Shown one piece after another: positions 1 to 7,184 of a stretch of 7,184 bases of DNA. A program made the translations under genes and the position numbers. The notes beneath the pieces were generated by a model. It saw only the letters and a program-made list of their open reading frames with translations, searched no databases and had not been told where the DNA came from. The stretch lies in IMG/VR virus record IMGVR_UViG_2617270940_000007, positions 1-7,184 of that record; one strand, given 5' to 3'. Source of the stretch: a virus (taxonomy: Duplodnaviria > Heunggongvirae > Uroviricota > Caudoviricetes). Each line of letters starts with the position of its first letter. Position 1 is the first letter of the stretch.

Positions 1-65
1 AACCAATATCACTTAAATAAGTGATAGTCTTAATACTAGTTTTTAGACTAGTCATTGGAGAGCAG

Positions 66-431
66 ATGATTGATGTCTTAGGACCGGAGAAACGCAGACG
101 GCGTACTACACAGGAAAAGATCGCTATTGTTCAGCAGAGTTTTGAACCGGGAATGACGGTCTCCCTTGTTGCCCGGCAACACGGTGTGGCAGCCAGCCAG
201 TTATTTCTCTGGCGCAAGCAATACCAGGAGGGAAGTCTTACTGCTGTGGCCGCAGGAGAGCAGGTCGTTCCTGCCTCTGAACTTGCTGCTGCCATGAAGC
301 AGATTAAAGAACTCCAGCGCCTGCTCGGCAAAAAAACGATGGAAAATGAACTCCTTAAAGAAGCCGTTGAATACGGGCGTGCAAAAAAGTGGATAGCGCA
401 CGCGCCCTTATTGCCCGGGGATGGGGAGTAA
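66..431 (+). CDS. insC: IS2 transposase OrfA (InsC), 121 aa, helix-turn-helix DNA-binding subunit
   Basis: ORF-track protein [40 protein letters not shown]... matches IS2 InsC as I recall it; chosen start is the ATG at 66 rather than the ORF-track upstream extension at 21. Confidence 0.9.
383..389 (+). other. Programmed -1 ribosomal frameshift motif A_AAA_AAG of IS2 (orfA to orfB)
   Basis: Heptamer aaaaaag at 383-389 in the insC frame (A-K-K-W) exactly where the insD frame opens; A6G slippery sites are the established mechanism in IS3-family elements. Confidence 0.75.
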
Positions 432-1294
432 GCTTAGTCAGCCGTTGTCTCCGGGTGTCGCGTGCGCAGTTGCACGTAATTCTCAGACGAACCGATGACT
501 GGAAAGATGGTCGCCGCAGCCGTCACTCAGATGATACGGATGTGCTTCTCCGTATACACCATGTTATCGGAGAGCTGCCCACGTATGGTTATCGTCGGGT
601 ATGGGCGCTGCTTCGCAGACAGGCCGAACTTGATGGTATGCCTGCGATCAATGCCAAACGTGTTTACCGGATCATGCGCCAGAATGCGCTGTTGCTTGAG
701 CGAAAACCCGCTGTACCGCCATCGAAACGGGCACATACTGGCAAAGTGGCCGTGAAAGAAAGCAATCAACGATGGTGCTCTGACGGGTTCGAGTTCCGCT
801 GTGATAACGGAGAAAAACTGCGAGTCACGTTCGCGCTGGACTGCTGTGACCGTGAGGCACTGCACTGGGCAGTCACTACGGGCGGCTTCGACAGTGAAAC
901 AGTACAGGACGTAATGCTGGGAGCGGTGGAACGCCGCTTCGGCAACGAGCTTCCGGCGTCTCCAGTAGAGTGGCTGACGGATAATGGTTCATGCTACCGG
1001 GCTAATGAAACACGGCAGTTTGCCCGGATGTTGGGGCTTGAACCGAAGAACACGGCGGTGCGGAGTCCGGAGAGTAACGGCATAGCAGAGAGCTTCGTGA
1101 AAACGATAAAGCGTGACTACATCAGTATCATGCCTAAACCAGACGGGTTAACGGCAGCAAAGAACCTTGCAGAGGCGTTCGAGCATTATAACGAATGGCA
1201 TCCGCATAGTGCACTGGGTTATCGCTCGCCACGGGAATATCTGCGGCAGCAGGCCAGTAATGGGTTAAGTGATAACAGGTGTCTGGAAATATAG
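389..1294 (+). CDS. insD: IS2 transposase OrfB (InsD), DDE catalytic domain; expressed as InsCD fusion by -1 frameshift
   Basis: 301-aa ORF in the -1 frame relative to insC, overlapping its 3' end; GTG start at 389 lies inside the slippery heptamer; stop TAG at 1292-1294 inside the right inverted repeat. Confidence 0.9.
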
Positions 1295-1305
1295 GGGCAA
1301 ATCCA
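1265..1305. repeat. IS2 right terminal inverted repeat (IRR)
   Basis: Terminal ~41 bp ending ...tggaaatataggggcaaatcca; the matching left repeat lies outside the window, so pairing cannot be verified here. Confidence 0.6.
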
Positions 1306-1679
1306 CCTACTGCCATTACCCACACTTTCATCATTTCACGTAAACGAAGAGAAAAGCGCACCTGCCATTACTCCATACACGGAGAAGAACAATCACCAAA
1401 ACGACGGGAACAACCCAGACGAAAACACAGAGAAGAACCACCTCAAGAAGAACGAAACCACATACGCCGGTAGAGAGTACAAACCACCCATTTCACCCAC
1501 AGGAATAGTCGCCGTATTGAGCGTTATCAGAGAGAAGGTTTATGCCCACATAAGAGAGAAAATTCGAGGGAGGTATAAGTGGGAAGGGGAAGAGGGGTAT
1601 CGCTACTTTTTCCGTATAAATTCAAGCCATAGTTTTCGTCCCCCGTAACGTCCCTATCCACCCCTTCGGTCAGCCTTCG

Positions 1680-1830
1680 GGCCATCCAGGGAAAAGGCCA
1701 TGTCCCTTTTCAGGAACGGGAGCGTCGCCGCAGGGAAAAGGCTGGAGGTTTTCAGGGAAACGGTGGGAATCCCGCTGTACGAACCGGGAAAAGGCTGGCT
1801 GCCGGTCGGGAAACGGGTACATCCCGGTAC
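1680..1830. repeat. GC-rich array of ~6 degenerate direct repeats (core GGGAAA(A/C)GG, ~22-bp period); iteron-like or protein-binding array
   Basis: Units cagggaaaaggc (~1687), caggaacggg (~1711), cagggaaaaggc (~1731), cagggaaacgg (~1753), ccgggaaaaggc (~1784), cgggaaacggg (~1807); no credible ORF across it. Confidence 0.5.
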
Positions 1831-2134
1831 AGAGTGAGGGACGACTGCGGGAGCGGTGCGGGAAATCTTCGGGAGTGCGCCTTACTCTTCACTCGCCTGA
1901 AAATCGCGGGGGAGTGTCATTCCCTCTCGTGCAGCTACTGGACTCCAGTCTGCCAGACCATCATCGGGTCTCAAGCGATTTCAGTAGGTTTTCGGGGAGA
2001 AGAAAATTCTGCCCACCAGCCCCGCGGCGCGCGTAGAGCAGAATATCGTAAATACTGGCTCCCGTGTCGTTCCCGGATATTCACTGCCCAGCCTGGCTTT
2101 CCCGACATAAAATCCTTTTTCGCCTTTGTCTTAT

Positions 2135-2170
2135 TGCGATAATAACACCAATAAGTAAACAACATATTTA
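2135..2170 (+). promoter_or_regulatory. Promoter module A: extended -10 (TGcGATAAT) followed by degenerate AAACAA-N-ATTTA operator-like element
   Basis: ttgcgataataacaccaataagtaaacaacatattta aligns with modules D (4651-4686) and E (5135-5170); lies ~30 bp upstream of RBS gagga and ATG 2202. Confidence 0.4.
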
Positions 2171-2201
2171 GACGTTATAGAAACGAAGTGAGGATGAAGA
2201 G

Positions 2202-2418
2202 ATGATTAAGATGCCTGTGACGGTTGAGGTGTGGGGCGTGGATTCCCTGGCTGAGTGTCTGGATGCAGTGGGGCCGGAGTTGTACCGCAAGTTGTGGTCG
2301 TTCGTCCCGCAGAAGGGGAATCGCCCAAAGGGAAGGATATCTGGCATCTGCTGAGTGAAGATGAAAAGCGGGAGCTGGTGGACGCGGTACACAGCGAGTT
2401 CCCGGAGGACGAAGATTA
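2202..2418 (+). pseudogene. Small ORF (~72 aa if repaired) split by an apparent frameshift near 2331-2336; hypothetical protein
   Basis: RBS gagga 8 nt before ATG 2202; frame 0 gives MIKMPVTVEVWGVDSLAECLDAVGPELYRKLWSFVPQKGNRPKG then stops at 2352-2354; the -1 frame continues KDIWHLLSEDEKRELVDAVHSEFPEDED to TAA ~2416-2418. Both halves look protein-like. Below the ORF-track length cutoff. Confidence 0.3.
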
Positions 2419-2510
2419 AGAGTGAGGTCACCAGCACGGTGGCTTTTGTCGCTATTAACCTCCGGGGCAGCGCAGCACCGTAACGATATACTCTGTGGCC
2501 GTTTTCTTAC

Positions 2511-2548
2511 TGGTATTGTTTACGCAATTCAGAAAACAACATGTTTAA
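2511..2548 (+). promoter_or_regulatory. Promoter module B: extended -10 (TGgTATTGT) plus AAACA-aca-TGTTT palindrome in the 5' UTR
   Basis: ctggtattgtttacgcaattcagaaaacaacatgtttaagga; near-identical in layout to module C (2992-3037); immediately precedes RBS aagga and ATG 2559. Confidence 0.5.
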
Positions 2549-2558
2549 GGATTGCTTT

Positions 2559-2888
2559 ATGTTTGCAAATATCGACATCAACCAAATCAAGAAAATGACT
2601 CAAAAAGAGTTTGACCAGTTTTATGAGTTAGAAGGTTGGTCTTCCACGCTGATCAATTCGCGCTGGGTGCTTGAGCTGATGACTCGTGATGATGCTCCTG
2701 CTTTGATTATTTGCGACATGGGTGAAGATGCTGACTTTATGGATATGAGCGAATTTTGTGTGGACACATACAACCGCAGCCAGAAGTACTACTTCACATG
2801 CGATAGCGAGAATGACGTGATTTCTAAGCTCTATCTTCACCTTGTCCAGCATTGGGACGTGCAGGAATTCCTTGAGTTATTCGCGTAA
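2559..2888 (+). CDS. Hypothetical small acidic protein, 109 aa (cassette gene 1)
   Basis: ORF-track 2541..2888; start moved to ATG 2559 because 2541 lies inside the operator palindrome and 2559 has an aagga RBS at suitable spacing; followed by a hairpin at 2898-2920. No recognisable family. Confidence 0.6.
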   Translation: MFANIDINQIKKMTQKEFDQFYELEGWSSTLINSRWVLELMTRDDAPALIICDMGEDADFMDMSEFCVDTYNRSQKYYFTCDSENDVISKLYLHLVQHWDVQEFLELFA

Positions 2889-2897
2889 GCCCAACCA

Positions 2898-2925
2898 AAG
2901 CCAGCACCGCCTGCTGGCTTAACTT
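2898..2925 (+). terminator. Hairpin (aagccagc-accgcct-gctggctt) with weak U-tract; putative terminator of gene 1
   Basis: 8-bp inverted repeat 10 nt after the stop codon; downstream tract ttaacttctc is only moderately T-rich. Confidence 0.4.
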
Positions 2926-2991
2926 CTCTGTAGCCGTAGGGAAGAACCACCTTTAGATAATTCATGTGCCTGAGCAATATGCTTTGTAGCC

Positions 2992-3037
2992 GTTTTTACA
3001 CTGGTATTATTTACGCCATTGAGAAAACAATTTGTTT
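2992..3037 (+). promoter_or_regulatory. Promoter module C: extended -10 (TGgTATTAT) plus AAACAA-t-TTGTTT palindrome in the 5' UTR
   Basis: gccgtttttacactggtattatttacgccattgagaaaacaatttgtttacgg; homologous to module B over ~50 bp; precedes RBS ggag and ATG 3049. Confidence 0.5.
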
Positions 3038-3048
3038 ACGGAGTAGTG

Positions 3049-3360
3049 ATGAATACTTCATTGGTGCTGGGTCTTGCTGAAGGCCAGGAGAGAAAAGAAA
3101 AACCAACCTTAATGGGGCATCTCACATTGCTGGATATCGTAGCGAATGGGACTTCTATCCGTCTGTTTCGTGAAAAAGCCATTACCTTCGACGCGGGCAA
3201 TTTTACGCGCTATGTGATGGTAGTTCGTCGCCGGCGTGGAAGAGGGTGGATGTCGGTCCAGAAAATGTGGCCAGAGGACCAGCTTGAACTGGCGCTGATG
3301 GAAGCTAACCGTGTCGCCCAACAAGAGATCCAACGAGCGTCTGTTCAGGCGGTAGCTTAA
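3049..3360 (+). CDS. Hypothetical protein, 103 aa (cassette gene 2)
   Basis: ORF-track 3019..3360 begins at a TTG inside the operator; ATG 3049 preceded by ggag is the likelier start; Rho-independent terminator follows. No recognisable family. Confidence 0.55.
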   Translation: MNTSLVLGLAEGQERKEKPTLMGHLTLLDIVANGTSIRLFREKAITFDAGNFTRYVMVVRRRRGRGWMSVQKMWPEDQLELALMEANRVAQQEIQRASVQAVA

Positions 3361-3394
3361 ACATGTGCAAGCAGTAGTTAGTCGAATGTACGAC

Positions 3395-3424
3395 AGCCCC
3401 GCCAATCCTTCGGGGCTTTTTTGT
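3395..3424 (+). terminator. Rho-independent terminator (agccccg - loop - cggggct + TTTTTT)
   Basis: GC-rich 7-bp stem with ccttcgg-type loop followed directly by a six-T run, 35 nt after the gene 2 stop. Confidence 0.7.
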
Positions 3425-3449
3425 ATTGTAAGTACTTACTTATGATAAT
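3421..3449 (+). promoter_or_regulatory. Sigma70-like promoter (TTGTAT - 17 bp - GATAAT) with a perfect 12-bp palindrome GTAAGTACTTAC in the spacer
   Basis: -35 TTGTAT at 3421-3426, -10 GATAAT at 3444-3449, spacer 17 bp; palindrome at 3428-3439 overlaps the spacer (operator-like); AT-rich leader then strong RBS aggag 6 nt before ATG 3482. Confidence 0.5.
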
Positions 3450-3481
3450 AAAATTAAAAATTAAACAATAAGGAGAGTGAA

Positions 3482-3877
3482 ATGACCGTTAAACGCGAAA
3501 ATCTGACCCTGGATATGTATTATGCATCAGAGACGGAAAATGGAGACAAAGTTGCAAAAATTACAATTGTGCTACGCGATAATGCCTCCGGCGAAGAAGT
3601 TCACACCAGTACCTTAACTCGCACCGGCGAGGCGACAAAGGGGAAATATTCGGTGCGTTACCAAAGCATCAGTAATGCTTCTGACCCTTTACTGATAAAA
3701 CTGGAAACTCATTTCCGTGGCGCGGATCAGACGTTGTTTGAAAATTTGATGAAAAAGGTCGATACGGTTTATACATCGAGTTTAAATACCAATAGTACCT
3801 GGATGGGACAACACGGTCTGCGAATAATCTCCGGCGAAAAGATCGACACCATTGTCCCTGAAAGCGTATTCGCTTAA
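3482..3877 (+). CDS. Hypothetical protein, 131 aa (cassette gene 3)
   Basis: Strong RBS aggag at 3471-3475, 6 nt before the ATG; own promoter and own terminator; no recognisable family. Confidence 0.65.
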   Translation: MTVKRENLTLDMYYASETENGDKVAKITIVLRDNASGEEVHTSTLTRTGEATKGKYSVRYQSISNASDPLLIKLETHFRGADQTLFENLMKKVDTVYTSSLNTNSTWMGQHGLRIISGEKIDTIVPESVFA

Positions 3878-3886
3878 TCCTCTTTG

Positions 3887-3916
3887 AATGGCGCGTAAAC
3901 CGCGCCATTTTCTTAT
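3887..3916 (+). terminator. Rho-independent terminator (aatggcgcg-taaac-cgcgccatt + T-rich tract)
   Basis: Perfect 9-bp inverted repeat 10 nt after the gene 3 stop, followed by ttttcttatg. Confidence 0.65.
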
Positions 3917-3921
3917 GTCCG

Positions 3922-3936
3922 ATAACAATTTGTTTT
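3922..3936 (+). promoter_or_regulatory. Operator-like palindrome AACAA-t-TTGTT (copy F of the conserved motif) upstream of gene 4
   Basis: gataacaatttgttttctg matches the core palindrome of modules B-E; the -10 context differs (GATAAC abuts the palindrome), so the promoter assignment is less certain. Confidence 0.35.
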
Positions 3937-3994
3937 CTGCCTTATCTGATTTGTGAAAATGATTTCACTGAAGCAACTTAATAAGGAAACCATC

Positions 3995-4369
3995 ATGGGA
4001 CTTGATATATATATCGAGACGCAGCCTAAAAACGATCTGAATAACGAGGCATCCAGAAAGCAGGTTGCTTACTTCCGTAAGTTCAATGCGCTCGTTGGGT
4101 GGATGGAGCGCAACGTAGGTGAAGTCGAAAATTGTGAGCTTTTAGAATTAACGATGAATGACATTTGTTTTCTGAAGGCTCATTTGATGCACATAAACGA
4201 AAGTAATTGCGAAGAGTACTTGCCTACCCAGGAAGGTTCTTTCTTCGGCAGTCAGGAGTACGATGAAGGTTACTGGCATGATGTGGGGGAGTTGAAAGAG
4301 ATTGTGGAAGATCTGATTAAGAACCACGACTTTCACAATAATAGACTGACCTTCTGCGCCTGGTGGTAA
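3995..4369 (+). CDS. Hypothetical acidic protein, 124 aa (cassette gene 4)
   Basis: ORF-track 3953..4369 starts at GTG with no RBS; ATG 3995 has aagga 7 nt upstream; stop TAA overlaps the start of the next small ORF (taaatATG). Confidence 0.55.
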   Translation: MGLDIYIETQPKNDLNNEASRKQVAYFRKFNALVGWMERNVGEVENCELLELTMNDICFLKAHLMHINESNCEEYLPTQEGSFFGSQEYDEGYWHDVGELKEIVEDLIKNHDFHNNRLTFCAWW

Positions 4370-4371
4370 AT

Positions 4372-4515
4372 ATGGGCGATTTCAAGAAACGCCTGAAGGA
4401 GAGAGCCGAGATGGTCAGAAAGCGAAACGCCTCTTCTGTCATAAGATACGCAAGGCAGTTTAGTCGCAACAACAAATCAGTTGAGGAAAAGATCCTTAGC
4501 GTAATCGGGCGATAA
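4372..4515 (+). CDS. Small basic ORF, 47 aa (or 34 aa from internal ATG 4411 with strong RBS aaggagag); possible coupled partner of gene 4
   Basis: MGDFKKRLKERAEMVRKRNASSVIRYARQFSRNNKSVEEKILSVIGR; start overlaps the upstream stop; internal ATG at 4411 has a strong SD at 7-nt spacing; Lys/Arg-rich; followed by hairpin 4521-4544. Below ORF-track cutoff. Confidence 0.3.
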   Translation: MGDFKKRLKERAEMVRKRNASSVIRYARQFSRNNKSVEEKILSVIGR

Positions 4516-4520
4516 TTATT

Positions 4521-4544
4521 AAGGCCACCAGCATTGGTGGTCTT
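4521..4544. repeat. Hairpin repeat copy 1 (aaggccacca-gcat-tggtggtctt) carrying a Chi octamer on the minus strand
   Basis: 10-bp arms with one G:T position, 4-nt loop; flanked by ttaaatgac; near-identical element at 4992-5015 with inverted loop; ccaccagc (complement of Chi GCTGGTGG) at 4525-4532. Confidence 0.6.
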
Positions 4545-4650
4545 AAATGACTTTTAATAACCGAAGGTTAGTTTGAAACCTGGCTATCAACTTCCAGAAC
4601 CTTTCTTGTGTATTCAGCCTGTATTAACTTCTTTTATGTCTTATCTACAC

Positions 4651-4686
4651 TGCGATAATTACACCAACAAGAAAACAATATGTTTA
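4651..4686 (+). promoter_or_regulatory. Promoter module D: extended -10 (TGcGATAAT) plus AAACA-ata-TGTTT palindrome in the 5' UTR
   Basis: tgcgataattacaccaacaagaaaacaatatgtttacgc; homologous to modules A and E; followed by RBS gagga (4693-4697) and ATG 4705. Confidence 0.5.
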
Positions 4687-4704
4687 CGCAGTGAGGATAT
4701 GCTC

Positions 4705-4986
4705 ATGACTGATTTCACCATTACCCCTAAAGCACAAAATGTATTCCTTGAATCATGGCTGGACTTGCCGGAAACAGAACAGCAAGAAATGGATCATGTG
4801 GAATATGACGAGCAGGTAAGCACGCGATTCTTCCACTTTGAGGGCTGCGTTTACGACATTGCCAACTTCATGCGAGATGACCGCTTCCCTGAATGGCACG
4901 CAAGCTATCCACTAAACGCCTTCGCCATGCTGATGATCCGTGTGGATGATTCAGGGGATACCATCGACATCGGTCTGCTCCACTAA
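4705..4986 (+). CDS. Hypothetical small acidic protein, 93 aa (cassette gene 5)
   Basis: ORF-track 4573..4986 would run through the promoter/operator; ATG 4705 lies 7 nt after gagga (ATG 4699 is too close to the SD). Protein MTDFTITPKAQNVFLESWLDLPETEQQEMDHVEYDEQ... is Asp/Glu-rich. No recognisable family. Confidence 0.6.
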   Translation: MTDFTITPKAQNVFLESWLDLPETEQQEMDHVEYDEQVSTRFFHFEGCVYDIANFMRDDRFPEWHASYPLNAFAMLMIRVDDSGDTIDIGLLH

Positions 4987-4991
4987 AGAGT

Positions 4992-5015
4992 AAGGCCACC
5001 AATGCTGGTGGCCTT
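4992..5015. repeat. Hairpin repeat copy 2 (aaggccacca-atgc-tggtggcctt) carrying a Chi octamer on the plus strand
   Basis: Perfect 10-bp arms; loop atgc is the reverse complement of the copy-1 loop gcat; GCTGGTGG at 5004-5011; followed by ttaaatgac as in copy 1. Confidence 0.6.
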
Positions 5016-5116
5016 AAATGACCATCCTGTTTTCTGCAGGCTAAAAACACCAACCTCTTACCTCCAGGCAACCGACAAACCCACCTGTTCCCGTCCGGCT
5101 ACCGCAACTTTCCACT

Positions 5117-5170
5117 TTGACGCCTTATTCGTACAACGATAATTAACACAAACAAGAAAACAATTTGTTA
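5117..5170 (+). promoter_or_regulatory. Promoter module E: TTGACG -35-like, cGATAAT -10, then AAACAA-t-TTGTTA palindrome in the 5' UTR
   Basis: ttgacgccttattcgtacaacgataattaacacaaacaagaaaacaatttgttatttacg; homologous to modules A and D; RBS aagga (5179-5183) 7 nt before ATG 5191. Confidence 0.5.
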
Positions 5171-5190
5171 TTTACGATAAGGAATTAATC

Positions 5191-5673
5191 ATGAATTTTA
5201 TCGCTACTGTAAACGCACCCGCACATGGCAATATCGCTGTAACGTTCTCTGACATTGAAAAACGAGTACTTGGTGCATGGCGCGACAATGAGACGGTAGA
5301 ACTGTCAGCACAAGAAAAATGCATTATTGCACGCGACATCATTGGCAATCGTCGTTACTCGCGGGTATTTGAGAAAGCATATGTGGTAAATTCTGGATTC
5401 GGAACGTTCGTCTTTCCGGTGCGCTCCGGGCGATTCTGCCAGTCCAAGCTGATTGAGTTCGCTACGCAGATTTCTGTCTGGATTAAAACTCAATCGTCGT
5501 TCAAATTTTCCGACGATGAAGCAGTATCGCAGGGGATGCGGATCGCCAACAATGCAATAAAATGCAAAAACATTACGTATGCCGCTGGCGTTGACACATG
5601 GAAACTGTTTTGCGCTAACTTTATGCTGAATGTATACGCAAGCAACCGCATCCACATCCTTGATGGCGTGTAA
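5191..5673 (+). CDS. Hypothetical protein, 160 aa (cassette gene 6)
   Basis: Good RBS, own promoter module, and a hairpin terminator immediately downstream; no recognisable family. Confidence 0.65.
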   Translation: MNFIATVNAPAHGNIAVTFSDIEKRVLGAWRDNETVELSAQEKCIIARDIIGNRRYSRVFEKAYVVNSGFGTFVFPVRSGRFCQSKLIEFATQISVWIKTQSSFKFSDDEAVSQGMRIANNAIKCKNITYAAGVDTWKLFCANFMLNVYASNRIHILDGV

Positions 5674-5676
5674 CTG

Positions 5677-5706
5677 AGAAGAGGGCCAGAAACGGCCCTT
5701 TCTCTA
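5677..5706 (+). terminator. Rho-independent terminator (agggcc-agaaac-ggccct + tttctct)
   Basis: GC-rich stem 4 nt after the stop codon, followed by a T-rich tract. Confidence 0.6.
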
Positions 5707-5716
5707 TAGCCACCAG

Positions 5717-5900
5717 CTGCCGCAGGGAAATTTTCAGAAACGGCGAGGAACGCATTCATGAGCCGAAGGGAAACGACCATGAAATTTTCTGGAAACGGCG
5801 GGGGGCGCCTTTATGTAGAAAACTGAGCGGGAGAAACCCGGAATCGCGCCAGAAATTGCGTAGCGGCGCTGGGGCAGCGCTGGTGGGGTTTCAGCCCCTG
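5717..5900. repeat. Second GC-rich repeat block (GGGAAA / GAAACGG units), homologous to the 1680-1830 array
   Basis: gccgcagggaaa...ttttcagaaacggcg matches gccgcagggaaaaggctggaggttttcagggaaacggtg in array 1, as if with a ~10-bp deletion; shared gggccatccag motif (1677-1687 and ~5892-5902); Chi octamers at both edges (5710-5717 minus strand, 5879-5886 plus strand). Confidence 0.45.
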
Positions 5901-6088
5901 GGCCATCCAGATAGCTTTCGCTATGTGATTATGTGAATCCGTGGGTAAATCACTGTAAGCGCGTACACGTTGCCCAACGTGGCAATCATATGCGAGCGGA
6001 TACAAAACAACACAAAGAGCCGATCCGCGCCGACAAATAAATGCGGATCACATAGCAAGACTAAAAGCCAATGATTAACCATACTCTA

Positions 6089-6109
6089 TAGCGCAATATA
6101 ACGCGTTTT
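6089..6109. repeat. Hairpin (taacgcg-ttttaag-cgcgtta)
   Basis: Perfect 7-bp inverted repeat in an AT-rich intergenic region; member of a local family of GCGC-stem hairpins. Confidence 0.4.
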
Positions 6110-6216
6110 AAGCGCGTTAATGTGTTAAGTAATGGGTATGTACTGACAAGGATATAAAAGCGCGTCTATGGCGTTATTTTGGTGCTTATTTTTATGTTGT
6201 TGGAGCGAGTTAAAGA

Positions 6217-6246
6217 CAATAAAAAACGCGCCAATGATGGCGCGTT
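6217..6246 (-). terminator. Hairpin (aacgcgcc-aatgat-ggcgcgtt) followed by a T-run on the minus strand; second of two tandem minus-strand terminators
   Basis: Perfect 8-bp stem; on the minus strand the stem is followed directly by TTTTTT (plus-strand aaaaaa at 6221-6226). Confidence 0.5.
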
Positions 6247-6265
6247 ATGGTGGGAGTATTGGAAA

Positions 6266-6290
6266 CGAAAAAAGCGCCCATAGTGGGCGC
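6266..6290 (-). terminator. Rho-independent terminator of the 76-aa minus-strand gene (gcgccca-tag-tgggcgc + TTTTTT)
   Basis: Perfect 7-bp stem 6274-6290, followed on the minus strand by six T; lies 7 nt past the stop codon (6297-6299) of the 6297..6527 gene; the same 17-bp palindrome recurs at 6547-6563. Confidence 0.7.
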
Positions 6291-6296
6291 TCGATT

Positions 6297-6527
6297 TTAT
6301 TTGTGTAAACTAATTTTGAATCCCATTTCTACAAACGCTTTTAACATTAAAAATATATCAGCGTCATTCACGTCTGCTTTTTTTCGCTCCTGGTCGTTCA
6401 ATAAGTCAATTTTGCGCGTTGTTTCATTTATAAACTCGACTGCGCGCCCAGCGATCCCAGCGATCCCAGCGATGCGATTAACATAATATTCATTATGGAC
6501 GTTAACGCCAGCGATAAGAACAAACAT
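6297..6527 (-). CDS. Hypothetical small protein, 76 aa, containing an in-frame (IAG)x3 tandem repeat
   Basis: Minus-strand ORF with strong SD aaggag 7 nt before the ATG; bracketed by two identical 17-bp hairpins (6274-6290 and 6547-6563); terminator downstream. No recognisable family. Confidence 0.55.
   Translation of the reverse strand: MFVLIAGVNVHNEYYVNRIAGIAGIAGRAVEFINETTRKIDLLNDQERKKADVNDADIFLMLKAFVEMGFKISLHK
6447..6473. repeat. Perfect 9-bp tandem repeat (cccagcgat)x3 inside the 76-aa gene
   Basis: Three head-to-tail copies; on the coding (minus) strand atcgctggg x3 encodes Ile-Ala-Gly x3, so copy-number change would preserve frame. Confidence 0.8.
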
Positions 6528-6546
6528 GATTAAGCTCCTTAAAACT

Positions 6547-6563
6547 AGCGCCCATAGTGGGCG
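6547..6563. repeat. Second copy of the 17-bp palindrome gcgcccatagtgggcgc, between the two minus-strand genes
   Basis: Identical to 6274-6290; sits between the stop of the upstream minus-strand fragment (6578) and the SD/ATG (6527) of the 76-aa gene. Confidence 0.6.
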
Positions 6564-6577
6564 CTATATCCATCTAA

Positions 6578-6837
6578 TTACGCTTTGAAAGCATCAGCCA
6601 GATAGTTATAAAAATCATTTTTAACGAAGCGATATTGCTGTGATCCGTTTTTCGCTGCACCCATTCCTTTGATTTTTTCGACCAGTCCCAGACGTTCGCA
6701 AAGATTGATAAGCTGGTTGGCTTGAGTGTATCCTGCGTCTAATTTTATTTCGTTGGCTTTTTTCGCTTCATTCATTAAATCGAAAACAGCGCCATTGGTG
6801 AACGTGTCGATCTCGTCGTTAATCATATCGATTAATG
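6578..6837 (-). pseudogene. 3' fragment of a gene truncated at its 5' end by IS1 insertion; hypothetical protein, tentatively phage antirepressor-like C-terminal region
   Basis: Minus-strand frame stays open from the ORF-track Met (6826) up to the IS1 boundary (6837) with no stop, so the ORF runs into the IS; the antirepressor resemblance is an impression from memory only. Confidence 0.45.
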
Positions 6838-6892
6838 GGTGATGCTGCCAACTTACTGATTTAGTGTATGATGGTGTTTTTGAGGTGCTCCA

Positions 6893-7168
6893 GTGGCTTC
6901 TGTTTCTATCAGCTGTCCCTCCTGTTCAGCTACTGACGGGGTGGTGCGTAACGGCAAAAGCACTGCCGGACATCAGCGCTATCTCTGCTCTCATTGCCGT
7001 AAAACATGGCAACTACAGTTCACTTACACCGCCTCTCAGCCCGGTACGCACCAGAAAATCATTGATATGGCCATGAATGGCGTTGGATGCCGGGCAACTG
7101 CCCGCATTATGGGCGTTGGCCTCAACACGATTTTACGTCACTTAAAAAACTCAGGCCGCAGTCGGTAA
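6893..7168 (+). CDS. insA: IS1 InsA (transposition repressor / N-terminal part of the InsAB' transposase), 91 aa
   Basis: [91 protein letters not shown]; GTG start at 6893; zinc-finger-like CxxC...CxxC motif. Confidence 0.92.
7144..7150 (+). other. IS1 A6C -1 frameshift motif (insA to insB', gives InsAB' transposase)
   Basis: aaaaaac near the 3' end of insA, the established IS1 frameshift position; the insB' frame continues beyond the window. Confidence 0.7.
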
Positions 7169-7184
7169 CCTCGCGCATACAACC

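Follow-up and report, generated by a model that had tools for sequence, protein, structure and literature searches.

A conserved 47-codon gene behind a widespread acidic-protein gene in an SSU5-like phage-plasmid

Type II toxin-antitoxin modules such as ParDE, RelBE and HicAB consist of two small adjacent genes that share an operon, are tightly spaced and encode proteins of opposite charge. Phage moron cassettes consist of a promoter, one or more small genes and a terminator, and are inserted in variable regions of temperate phages. Translational coupling by termination-reinitiation across a stop/start junction is general in bacteria and phages, and the decay of polycistronic mRNA can leave a stable promoter-distal segment, as for papBA in E. 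coli. Here we describe a pair of genes, encoding an acidic protein of 124 residues and a basic protein of 47 residues, in a 7,184-nucleotide stretch of DNA (positions 1 to 7,184 of IMG/VR record IMGVR_UViG_2617270940_000007, hereafter the window), which is an array of small genes without known function of an SSU5-like phage-plasmid. An earlier note on this DNA had proposed that the pair is a toxin-antitoxin or protein-inhibitor module or, alternatively, that the shorter open reading frame (ORF) is non-coding 3' untranslated sequence.

The locus is a two-gene cassette in which a promoter with an operator palindrome is followed by the 124-residue gene, the 47-residue gene and a 3' hairpin. It resembles the type II modules, of which ParDE, RelBE and HicAB examples are found elsewhere on these phage-plasmids, in gene size, adjacency, spacing, shared operon and charge. 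It differs from them in that neither product has homology to their families, the putative antitoxin lacks a DNA-binding domain, the upstream gene is widespread without its partner, the partner is swapped in Klebsiella, the alleles do not co-vary and the operator is shared with other cassettes. Like a moron cassette, the locus has a promoter/operator unit at one end and a hairpin at the other, occupies a slot whose content varies between relatives and has small-gene RNA in lysogens; the authors of PMC9928086 called the small gene a moron. It is unlike such cassettes in that the small gene lacks a separate promoter unit and rides behind another gene with a 2-nucleotide spacer, and in that the array promoters share an operator and look co-regulated rather than autonomous; a host-benefit function is not known.

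As in coupled gene pairs, the second ATG lies 2 nucleotides after the stop codon and a sequence resembling a Shine-Dalgarno (SD) motif, GGTGGT, lies inside the upstream coding end. Unlike in such pairs, RNA sequencing suggests that the distal segment accumulates independently. The likeness to papBA-type differential decay is that a short distal cistron with a 3' hairpin lies far above the proximal cistron; the difference is that an internal promoter or antisense reads could explain the excess here just as well. With moderate confidence, we interpret the 47-residue gene as the second cistron of the cassette, translated by coupling to the first and encoding an independent accessory protein rather than an obligate partner. 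An acidic and a basic gene in tight succession are thus insufficient for calling a toxin-antitoxin pair.

Coding status, start codon and distribution of the 47-codon gene

The small ORF runs on the plus strand from ATG 4372 to TAA 4513-4515 (4372-4515), as the earlier note had it, and encodes a Lys/Arg-rich protein with an isoelectric point (pI) of 11.3 and a net charge of +9. The charge contrast with the upstream protein (pI 4.6, net charge -13), also pointed out in that note, is genuine. An ATG-initiated ORF of at least 47 codons that starts no more than 12 nucleotides after the stop codon arose in 1.3% of dinucleotide shuffles, and the presence of the ORF alone is therefore weak evidence; we judged it to be real because of its conservation pattern. 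It was full length in 203 of the 203 PLSDB plasmids that carry it (tblastn, 80-100% identity) and likewise intact in four phages, 26 IMG/VR contigs and each of the 40 loci retrieved. Across 39 aligned loci, representing 15 DNA alleles, there were no stops and no frameshifts, and the variable sites at codon positions 1, 2 and 3 numbered 11, 15 and 31, respectively. The pairwise ratio of non-synonymous to synonymous substitution rates (dN/dS) was 0.03-0.28 in the frame of the ORF, compared with roughly 0.6 to >1, and mostly at least 0.8, in the two shifted frames (binomial p for the synonymous excess, 1e-9 to 3e-3), and was comparable to that of the neighboring 124-residue gene (0.09-0.29).

Several alleles have had part of the ORF replaced. 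In E. albertii and in locus L009 the last 16 codons and the entire downstream terminator were swapped, with 47 codons and the stop position kept, and the rewritten tail had conservative residues, including a switch of a serine codon from AGC to TCA. In L008 and L038 the first 31 codons were rewritten, mostly synonymously. An exhaustive profile search of 1.84 billion representative proteins identified an orthologue of 44 residues, 63% identical, on an E. coli contig (L097), with the same stop, 2-nucleotide spacer and ATG layout and position; its proportions of synonymous and non-synonymous differences were 0.80 (pS) and 0.27 (pN). A second candidate from that search, the beta-propeller repeat protein P0031, was rejected as compositional. 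The substitution comparison, which the earlier note had proposed as a check, thus revealed purifying selection in the frame of the small ORF, with start, length and stop kept in diverged relatives, and it refuted the alternative of a non-coding 3' untranslated region. Judged by this pattern, the 47-codon ORF is a real protein-coding gene kept by selection.

Other readings of the region were considered and set aside. An antisense ORF at 4317-4475 was broken in L035 and showed no constraint. A programmed frameshift fusing the two ORFs was rejected; the junction contains no slippery site, and none of the sequences read was a fused homologue. The only disrupted copy seen was P0037, a partial 86-residue protein on an E. 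coli contig, in which unrelated sequence follows codon 38 of the small ORF, probably as a result of mobile-element insertion.

An internal start at ATG 4411 with a better SD sequence had also been suggested. The motif AAGGAG (4396-4401) followed by ATG 4411 is indeed present in the window, but this start was not conserved across alleles and was rejected: codon 14, which is the ATG here, read ATA in alleles of the L007 group, whereas L008 and L038 had CAG and L097 lacked the codon altogether, and AAGGAG read AAGGAA in most alleles. Since ATG 4372 was kept in every allele, codon 14 was not, and codons 1-13 were under purifying selection, the product is the 47-residue protein. This fixes the start codon of the gene at ATG 4372 and, together with that of the upstream gene at ATG 3995, is a gain for annotation.

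The 47-residue protein was predicted to be a hydrophilic two-helix protein of helix-loop-helix type, with helices at residues 2-30 and 35-46 (predicted local distance difference test, pLDDT, of 76), a grand average of hydropathy (GRAVY) of -0.94 and a best 15-residue window of -0.47. Searches of Pfam, NCBIfam, PADLOC and PHROGs gave no significant match; a match to MamL-1 (E 0.037) was below threshold and rejected as spurious. The protein belongs to an orphan family: among 5.8 billion proteins it accounts for five clusters at 90% identity, and the 1.84 billion representatives contain a single cluster at 50% identity. The five clusters held 52 member sequences, and the 30 members listed for the three clusters that were looked up were all 47 residues long except for the 44-residue orthologue and one insertion-disrupted copy. 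In PLSDB the gene occurred in Escherichia and Shigella only. It is thus a single narrow family confined to Escherichia/Shigella phage-plasmids.

Annotation of the gene is patchy. The protein is recorded as hypothetical under WP_023145152.1, CYRAN_109 and UniRef E2QDJ3. The small ORF was omitted by the annotation pipeline PGAP in NZ_CP110979.1, the only RefSeq record that was examined completely. For most plasmids the PLSDB gene table, which is incomplete, had no entry under it.

Anatomy of the cassette and the stop/start junction

The upstream gene occupies 3995-4369 on the plus strand, starting at ATG 3995 and ending, as the earlier note stated, at TAA 4367-4369. Its product belongs to phrog_7971, a family without known function, which it matched over its full length (E 1.1e-85, with residues 1-124 aligned to positions 1-124 of the profile). 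In many RefSeq records the gene is given as 136 residues with a start at ATG 3959. The alternative starts giving 136 and 138 residues fall within the putative promoter, ATG 3959 itself lying in the presumed -10/transcript-start region of the cassette. Because the N-terminal sequence MGLDIY is invariant across phyla in this family, 124 residues is the right length by sequence comparison, and ATG 3995 is the true start.

The 124-residue protein had homologues in 58 species-representative genomes, which came from Bacillota, Actinomycetota, Bacteroidota and Pseudomonadota and included some archaeal metagenome-assembled genomes. The downstream neighbors were inspected in 24 of these 58 genomes; in 23, from several phyla, they were unrelated to each other and no small basic ORF was seen, and the sole locus with such an ORF (L039) was a 99%-identical copy of this cassette. 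The 124-residue protein, and it alone of the pair, was likened to the folds of DMP12, a DNA-mimic protein of Neisseria (PDB 3w1o), and YfbM (PDB 1ryl). The literature on YfbM/DUF1877 function yielded nothing useful.

The two genes had been described as overlapping from stop to start. They do not: the junction reads TGG TGG TAA AT ATG, with a 2-nucleotide spacer, and the genes would overlap only if the in-frame GTG at 4363 were the start. The tight coupling proposed in the same claim fared better, as the layout is set up for coupled translation. The spacer was kept in three different junctions, TAAatATG, TGAagATG (L009) and TAGccATG (L097), and an SD-like GGTGGT at 4362-4367 on the plus strand, 4 nucleotides before ATG 4372, is formed by two tryptophan codons and the T of the stop codon, the C-terminal Trp-Trp pair being conserved in the 124-residue family. 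From the kept spacer and this motif we infer that the small ORF is translated by coupling, that is, by termination-reinitiation behind the 124-residue gene.

The upstream edge of the cassette is marked by a terminator-like hairpin at 3886-3910 on the plus strand (10-bp stem with 6 GC pairs, then TCTTATGTCC), which closes the preceding 131-residue gene. An operator-like palindrome, GATAACAATTTGTTTTC, at 3921-3937 (core AACAATTTGTT at 3924-3934) covers the -35 position of this promoter, and a putative extended -10 element, TGtGAAAAT, lies at 3952-3960 on the plus strand. The latter was not called by a strict sigma-70 scan; it aligns with six other intergenic units of the array, where its counterparts include TGcGATAAT, TGgTATTAT and TAtGATAAT. 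The window holds five AACAANNTGTT sites against 0.14 expected by chance, a count reached in 0 of 200 shuffles. The palindrome was kept about 70 nucleotides upstream of the 124-residue gene in Escherichia, Klebsiella (L002) and L097, recurs in four or more further cassettes of the array and may well be a repressor-binding operator. No promoter/operator unit stands in front of the small ORF, which makes it the second cistron of the cassette.

Units of about 65 nucleotides, combining an extended -10 (TGnGATAAT-like) with, in most, a palindrome of the form AACAnnTGTT, precede nearly every gene of the array (2107-2170, 2486-2551, 2977-3042, 3909-3962, 4623-4686 and 5110-5170). The palindrome is located after the -10 in five of these units and over the -35 in the unit of the 124-residue gene. 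This arrangement suggests that one repressor controls the whole array.

The cassette ends in a 12-bp hairpin at 4519-4546 on the plus strand, which had been noticed earlier at 4521-4544 and could serve as a terminator, as an RNA-stabilizing 3' end or as both. In nine variants 98% of its alignment cells were paired. Canonical terminators with a GC stem and a T-run replace it in the same place in E. albertii, L009 and L097, and a hairpin or canonical terminator followed the small ORF in all variants. The hairpin is duplicated at 4991-5017, with the loop inverted between the copies, and the two copies flank a 93-residue cassette on both sides. In plasmid pERB3f3 (L003) there is only one hairpin and no 93-residue cassette, which suggests that this cassette is gained or lost by recombination between hairpin copies.

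Replaceable partners, lysogen RNA and competing explanations

The slot between the 131- and 160-residue genes (window 3878-5190) was found to be a variable hotspot (L002, L003, L004, L009, L098 and L099). In terms of product lengths, its contents among relatives were 124+47, 124+47+93, 124+93 in Klebsiella, 78+93 in E. marmotae and 63+99 in pEHP91H1-1; in E. albertii, a ParE/RelE pair and then two further genes lay behind 124+47. About 119 Klebsiella plasmids had the 124-residue gene (87% identical) joined at an identical TAAATATG junction to an unrelated acidic 93-residue gene, phrog_1845, downstream of it, which in the window forms a separate cassette at 4705-4986. No remnants of the small ORF were detected in these plasmids at blastn sensitivity. 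Alleles of the two genes also reassort: L009 combines a 70%-identical 124-residue gene with the same small-protein allele as L004, whose 124-residue gene is 94% identical. These observations show that the 47-residue gene is an accessory gene of the variable array of the phage-plasmid and that the partner slot behind the 124-residue gene is replaceable. The Klebsiella junction, TAAATATGACTGATTTCA, is derivable by a 333-nucleotide deletion between ATGggcGATTTCA (4372) and ATGactGATTTCA (4705), and could have arisen in this way from an arrangement such as that of the window.

Expression data exist for an identical copy of the small gene. CYRAN_109 of phage-plasmid Cyrano in E. coli LF82 is identical in sequence to the 47-codon ORF, is one of 13 Cyrano "morons" and was expressed about 6-fold above the local background in LB in LF82 lysogens (PMC9928086). 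Positions 97,226-97,782 of Cyrano (OV696614) correspond to window 3959-4515. The S1 Table of that study gives log2(FPKM+5) values, FPKM being fragments per kilobase per million mapped, for five conditions in duplicate. For CYRAN_109 these were 6.1/5.6, 5.9/6.3, 8.0/8.2, 6.7/7.0 and 6.9/7.0, and for CYRAN_108, the 124/136-residue gene, 2.7/2.3, 3.6/3.6, 3.0/3.1, 4.5/4.3 and 5.2/5.5 (PMC9928086). The RNA of the small ORF is thus present in lysogens at a level uncoupled from that of the upstream gene. If its lysogen-specific accumulation is real, the 47-residue protein would be a candidate lysogenic-conversion factor.

Taken together, we propose that transcription starts at the cassette promoter under the shared operator palindrome and would proceed through the 124-residue gene (phrog_7971) and the 47-residue gene to the 3' hairpin. 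Ribosomes terminating at TAA 4367-4369 would restart 2 nucleotides downstream, aided by the GGTGGT of the Trp-Trp codons. An unrecognized internal promoter or a hairpin-protected 3' fragment may account for the build-up of 47-codon RNA in lysogens. The product would be an independent accessory protein of the moron type, addable to and losable from the slot behind the 124-residue gene, and its basic helices might, as our best guess at a mode of action, bind nucleic acid or an acidic surface of the host or of the phage.

A number of observations weigh against this proposal. The RNA over the small ORF exceeded that of the 124-residue gene by 3- to 80-fold in all ten samples, an excess that simple co-transcription and coupling would not predict, although these values rest on small counts (about 4 million bacterial reads per sample) from libraries of unstated strandedness. 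A scan found no sigma-70 promoter within 4250-4372, and the hairpin at 4519-4546 has no clean U-tract and only one compensatory pair, a level of covariation not beyond that of the shuffle control. The 47-residue gene stood behind the 124-residue gene in every record that has it, so that a functional link is conceivable, and a complex would be consistent with the opposite charges of the two proteins (-13 and +9). The evidence for the product consists of sequence comparison and the RNA level (PMC9928086), and PDB sequence and Foldseek searches with the 47-residue model found no match that would support the proposed biochemical role. The RNA excess could represent a hairpin-protected decay fragment, transcription from an unrecognized promoter or antisense reads. 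The only TAnnnT candidate for a -10 element, TAGACT at 4342-4347, read CAGACT in all seven aligned comparison loci and was rejected.

The constant association and the charges could also reflect a pair of non-toxic partners, in which the basic two-helix peptide binds and modulates the acidic protein with its DMP12/YfbM-like fold, for instance by masking a DNA-mimic surface until it is required. We hold this to be unlikely, although no other rival fares better. Most of the 124-residue family has no such partner, the 87%-identical Klebsiella orthologues work without it, the alleles of the two genes reassort and their RNA levels are uncoupled.

The same RNA data allow a reading that we regard as quite unlikely, in which the 47-codon segment forms an abundant transcript of its own in lysogens, about 175 nucleotides long and uncoupled from a repressed 124-residue gene. 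It would encode a lysogeny-specific basic micro-protein, or be a dual-function RNA/protein, acting on the host or on the regulatory circuit of the phage-plasmid. If true, it would define a new family of phage-plasmid lysogenic-conversion micro-proteins.

That the main product is the RNA itself seems very unlikely to us. Under this explanation a stable 3'-derived small RNA of about 175 nucleotides, from about 4370 to the hairpin end at 4546, would be what matters, and the ORF would be secondary or part of a dual-function transcript. The excess of RNA over 4372-4515 in the ten samples fits, the stretch up to and including the hairpin has a better predicted fold than shuffled sequences (z -3.2), and the AU-rich intercistronic UAAAUAU might be an RNase E site. 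Against this, the z-score is owed largely to the terminal hairpin, the predicted long-range pairing is lost in the E. albertii and L097 variants, in which the hairpin is also swapped for other terminators, and Rfam gave no match in the region of the locus. The concentration of changes at synonymous sites indicates constraint at the protein level, which argues that selection acts on the protein and not on RNA structure.

For the toxin-antitoxin or inhibitor pair, in which one product would be harmful, its oppositely charged partner would neutralize it and coupling would fix their ratio, our estimate is lower still, and the proposal was not borne out. Its appeal lies in the adjacency, the 2-nucleotide spacer, the charges and the absence of any 47-residue gene without a 124-residue gene, and in the fact that these phage-plasmids hold several genuine pairs, a ParE/RelE pair occupying the very same slot in E. 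albertii. However, toxin, antitoxin and defense models in Pfam, NCBIfam, PADLOC and PHROGs matched neither protein and thus placed neither in a recognized toxin fold or family (RelE/ParE, MazF, HicA, VapC, Doc, GNAT and others), and neither had a DNA-binding domain (ribbon-helix-helix, helix-turn-helix, AbrB or Phd). In type II systems the two genes are expected to co-occur, but the 124-residue gene lacked the 47-residue gene in 119 Klebsiella plasmids and in 23 of 24 distant loci, with other partners in other phyla. Its persistence without the small gene in Klebsiella excludes the version in which the 47-residue protein neutralizes a harmful 124-residue protein and leaves only that in which the 47-residue protein is the toxin. 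That protein has no hydrophobic membrane-spanning segment of the kind found in type I toxins, and its hydropathy is unlike that of small membrane toxins. In addition, the alleles reassort instead of co-varying, the operator is common to neighboring cassettes rather than pair-specific, and the lysogen RNA of the putative toxin was 3- to 80-fold above that of the putative antitoxin.

That the small ORF is a random open frame within the 3' untranslated region, without a product, is barely credible: such frames do arise in shuffled sequence at the 1.3% rate given above, and PGAP and the incomplete, mostly blank PLSDB table leave the region unannotated, but the frame is intact in every locus across saturated synonymous divergence, dN/dS is far below 1 in this frame only, and length and stop survive two independent sequence replacements and the 63%-identical orthologue.

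Setting of the cassette in the phage-plasmid

The 701 bases around the locus matched plasmids in 215 of 5,426 complete E. coli genomes and chromosomes in none. The same bases matched 332 PLSDB plasmids, each about 110 kb and for the most part non-mobilizable, and the phages Cyrano (pLF82), PhiR41_1 and CMS-2020a; these phages and plasmids are SSU5-like phage-plasmids (PMC9928086). About 4% of complete E. coli genomes carry the conserved 47-residue gene, invariably on a phage-plasmid, and its occurrence in clinical isolates of E. coli and Shigella extends to the O104:H4 and LF82 plasmids. The locus offers a tractable case of small-gene shuffling in SSU5-like accessory arrays, whose cassettes share promoter/operator units and 3' hairpins.

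Within the window the array is cut by an IS2 copy at the left edge (21-1294; TnpA and TnpB are full-length NCBIfam matches) and by an IS1 copy (InsA) at the right edge (6893-7184). Plasmid NZ_CP110979.1, otherwise identical to the window, has no IS2 at that position. The IS1 copy truncates the phrog_1513 gene (6578-6826, minus strand), leaving the C-terminal 81 of 216 residues.

Between 1295 and 2200 lie about 900 nucleotides without an annotated gene or convincing ORF, whose sequence is 80-94% conserved among the SSU5-like plasmids of Escherichia, Enterobacter, Salmonella and Citrobacter. Rfam gave no match in this region, which may be an origin, a regulatory region or an undescribed RNA. It is followed by a frameshifted small gene at 2202-2419, split into ORFs 2202-2354 and 2255-2419, with its own promoter/operator unit upstream; this gene is labelled a pseudogene in NZ_CP110979.1.

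Toward the right edge, the minus-strand ORF 6297-6527 contains a perfect tandem repeat of 9 nucleotides in three copies, CCCAGCGAT, at 6447-6473, which encodes the motif IAG-IAG-IAG. A GC-rich hairpin, AGCGCCCATAGTGGGCGCT, preceded by an A-run, is present in two copies at 6268-6291 and 6542-6565, and these look like putative minus-strand terminators of the genes at 6297-6527 and 6578-6826.

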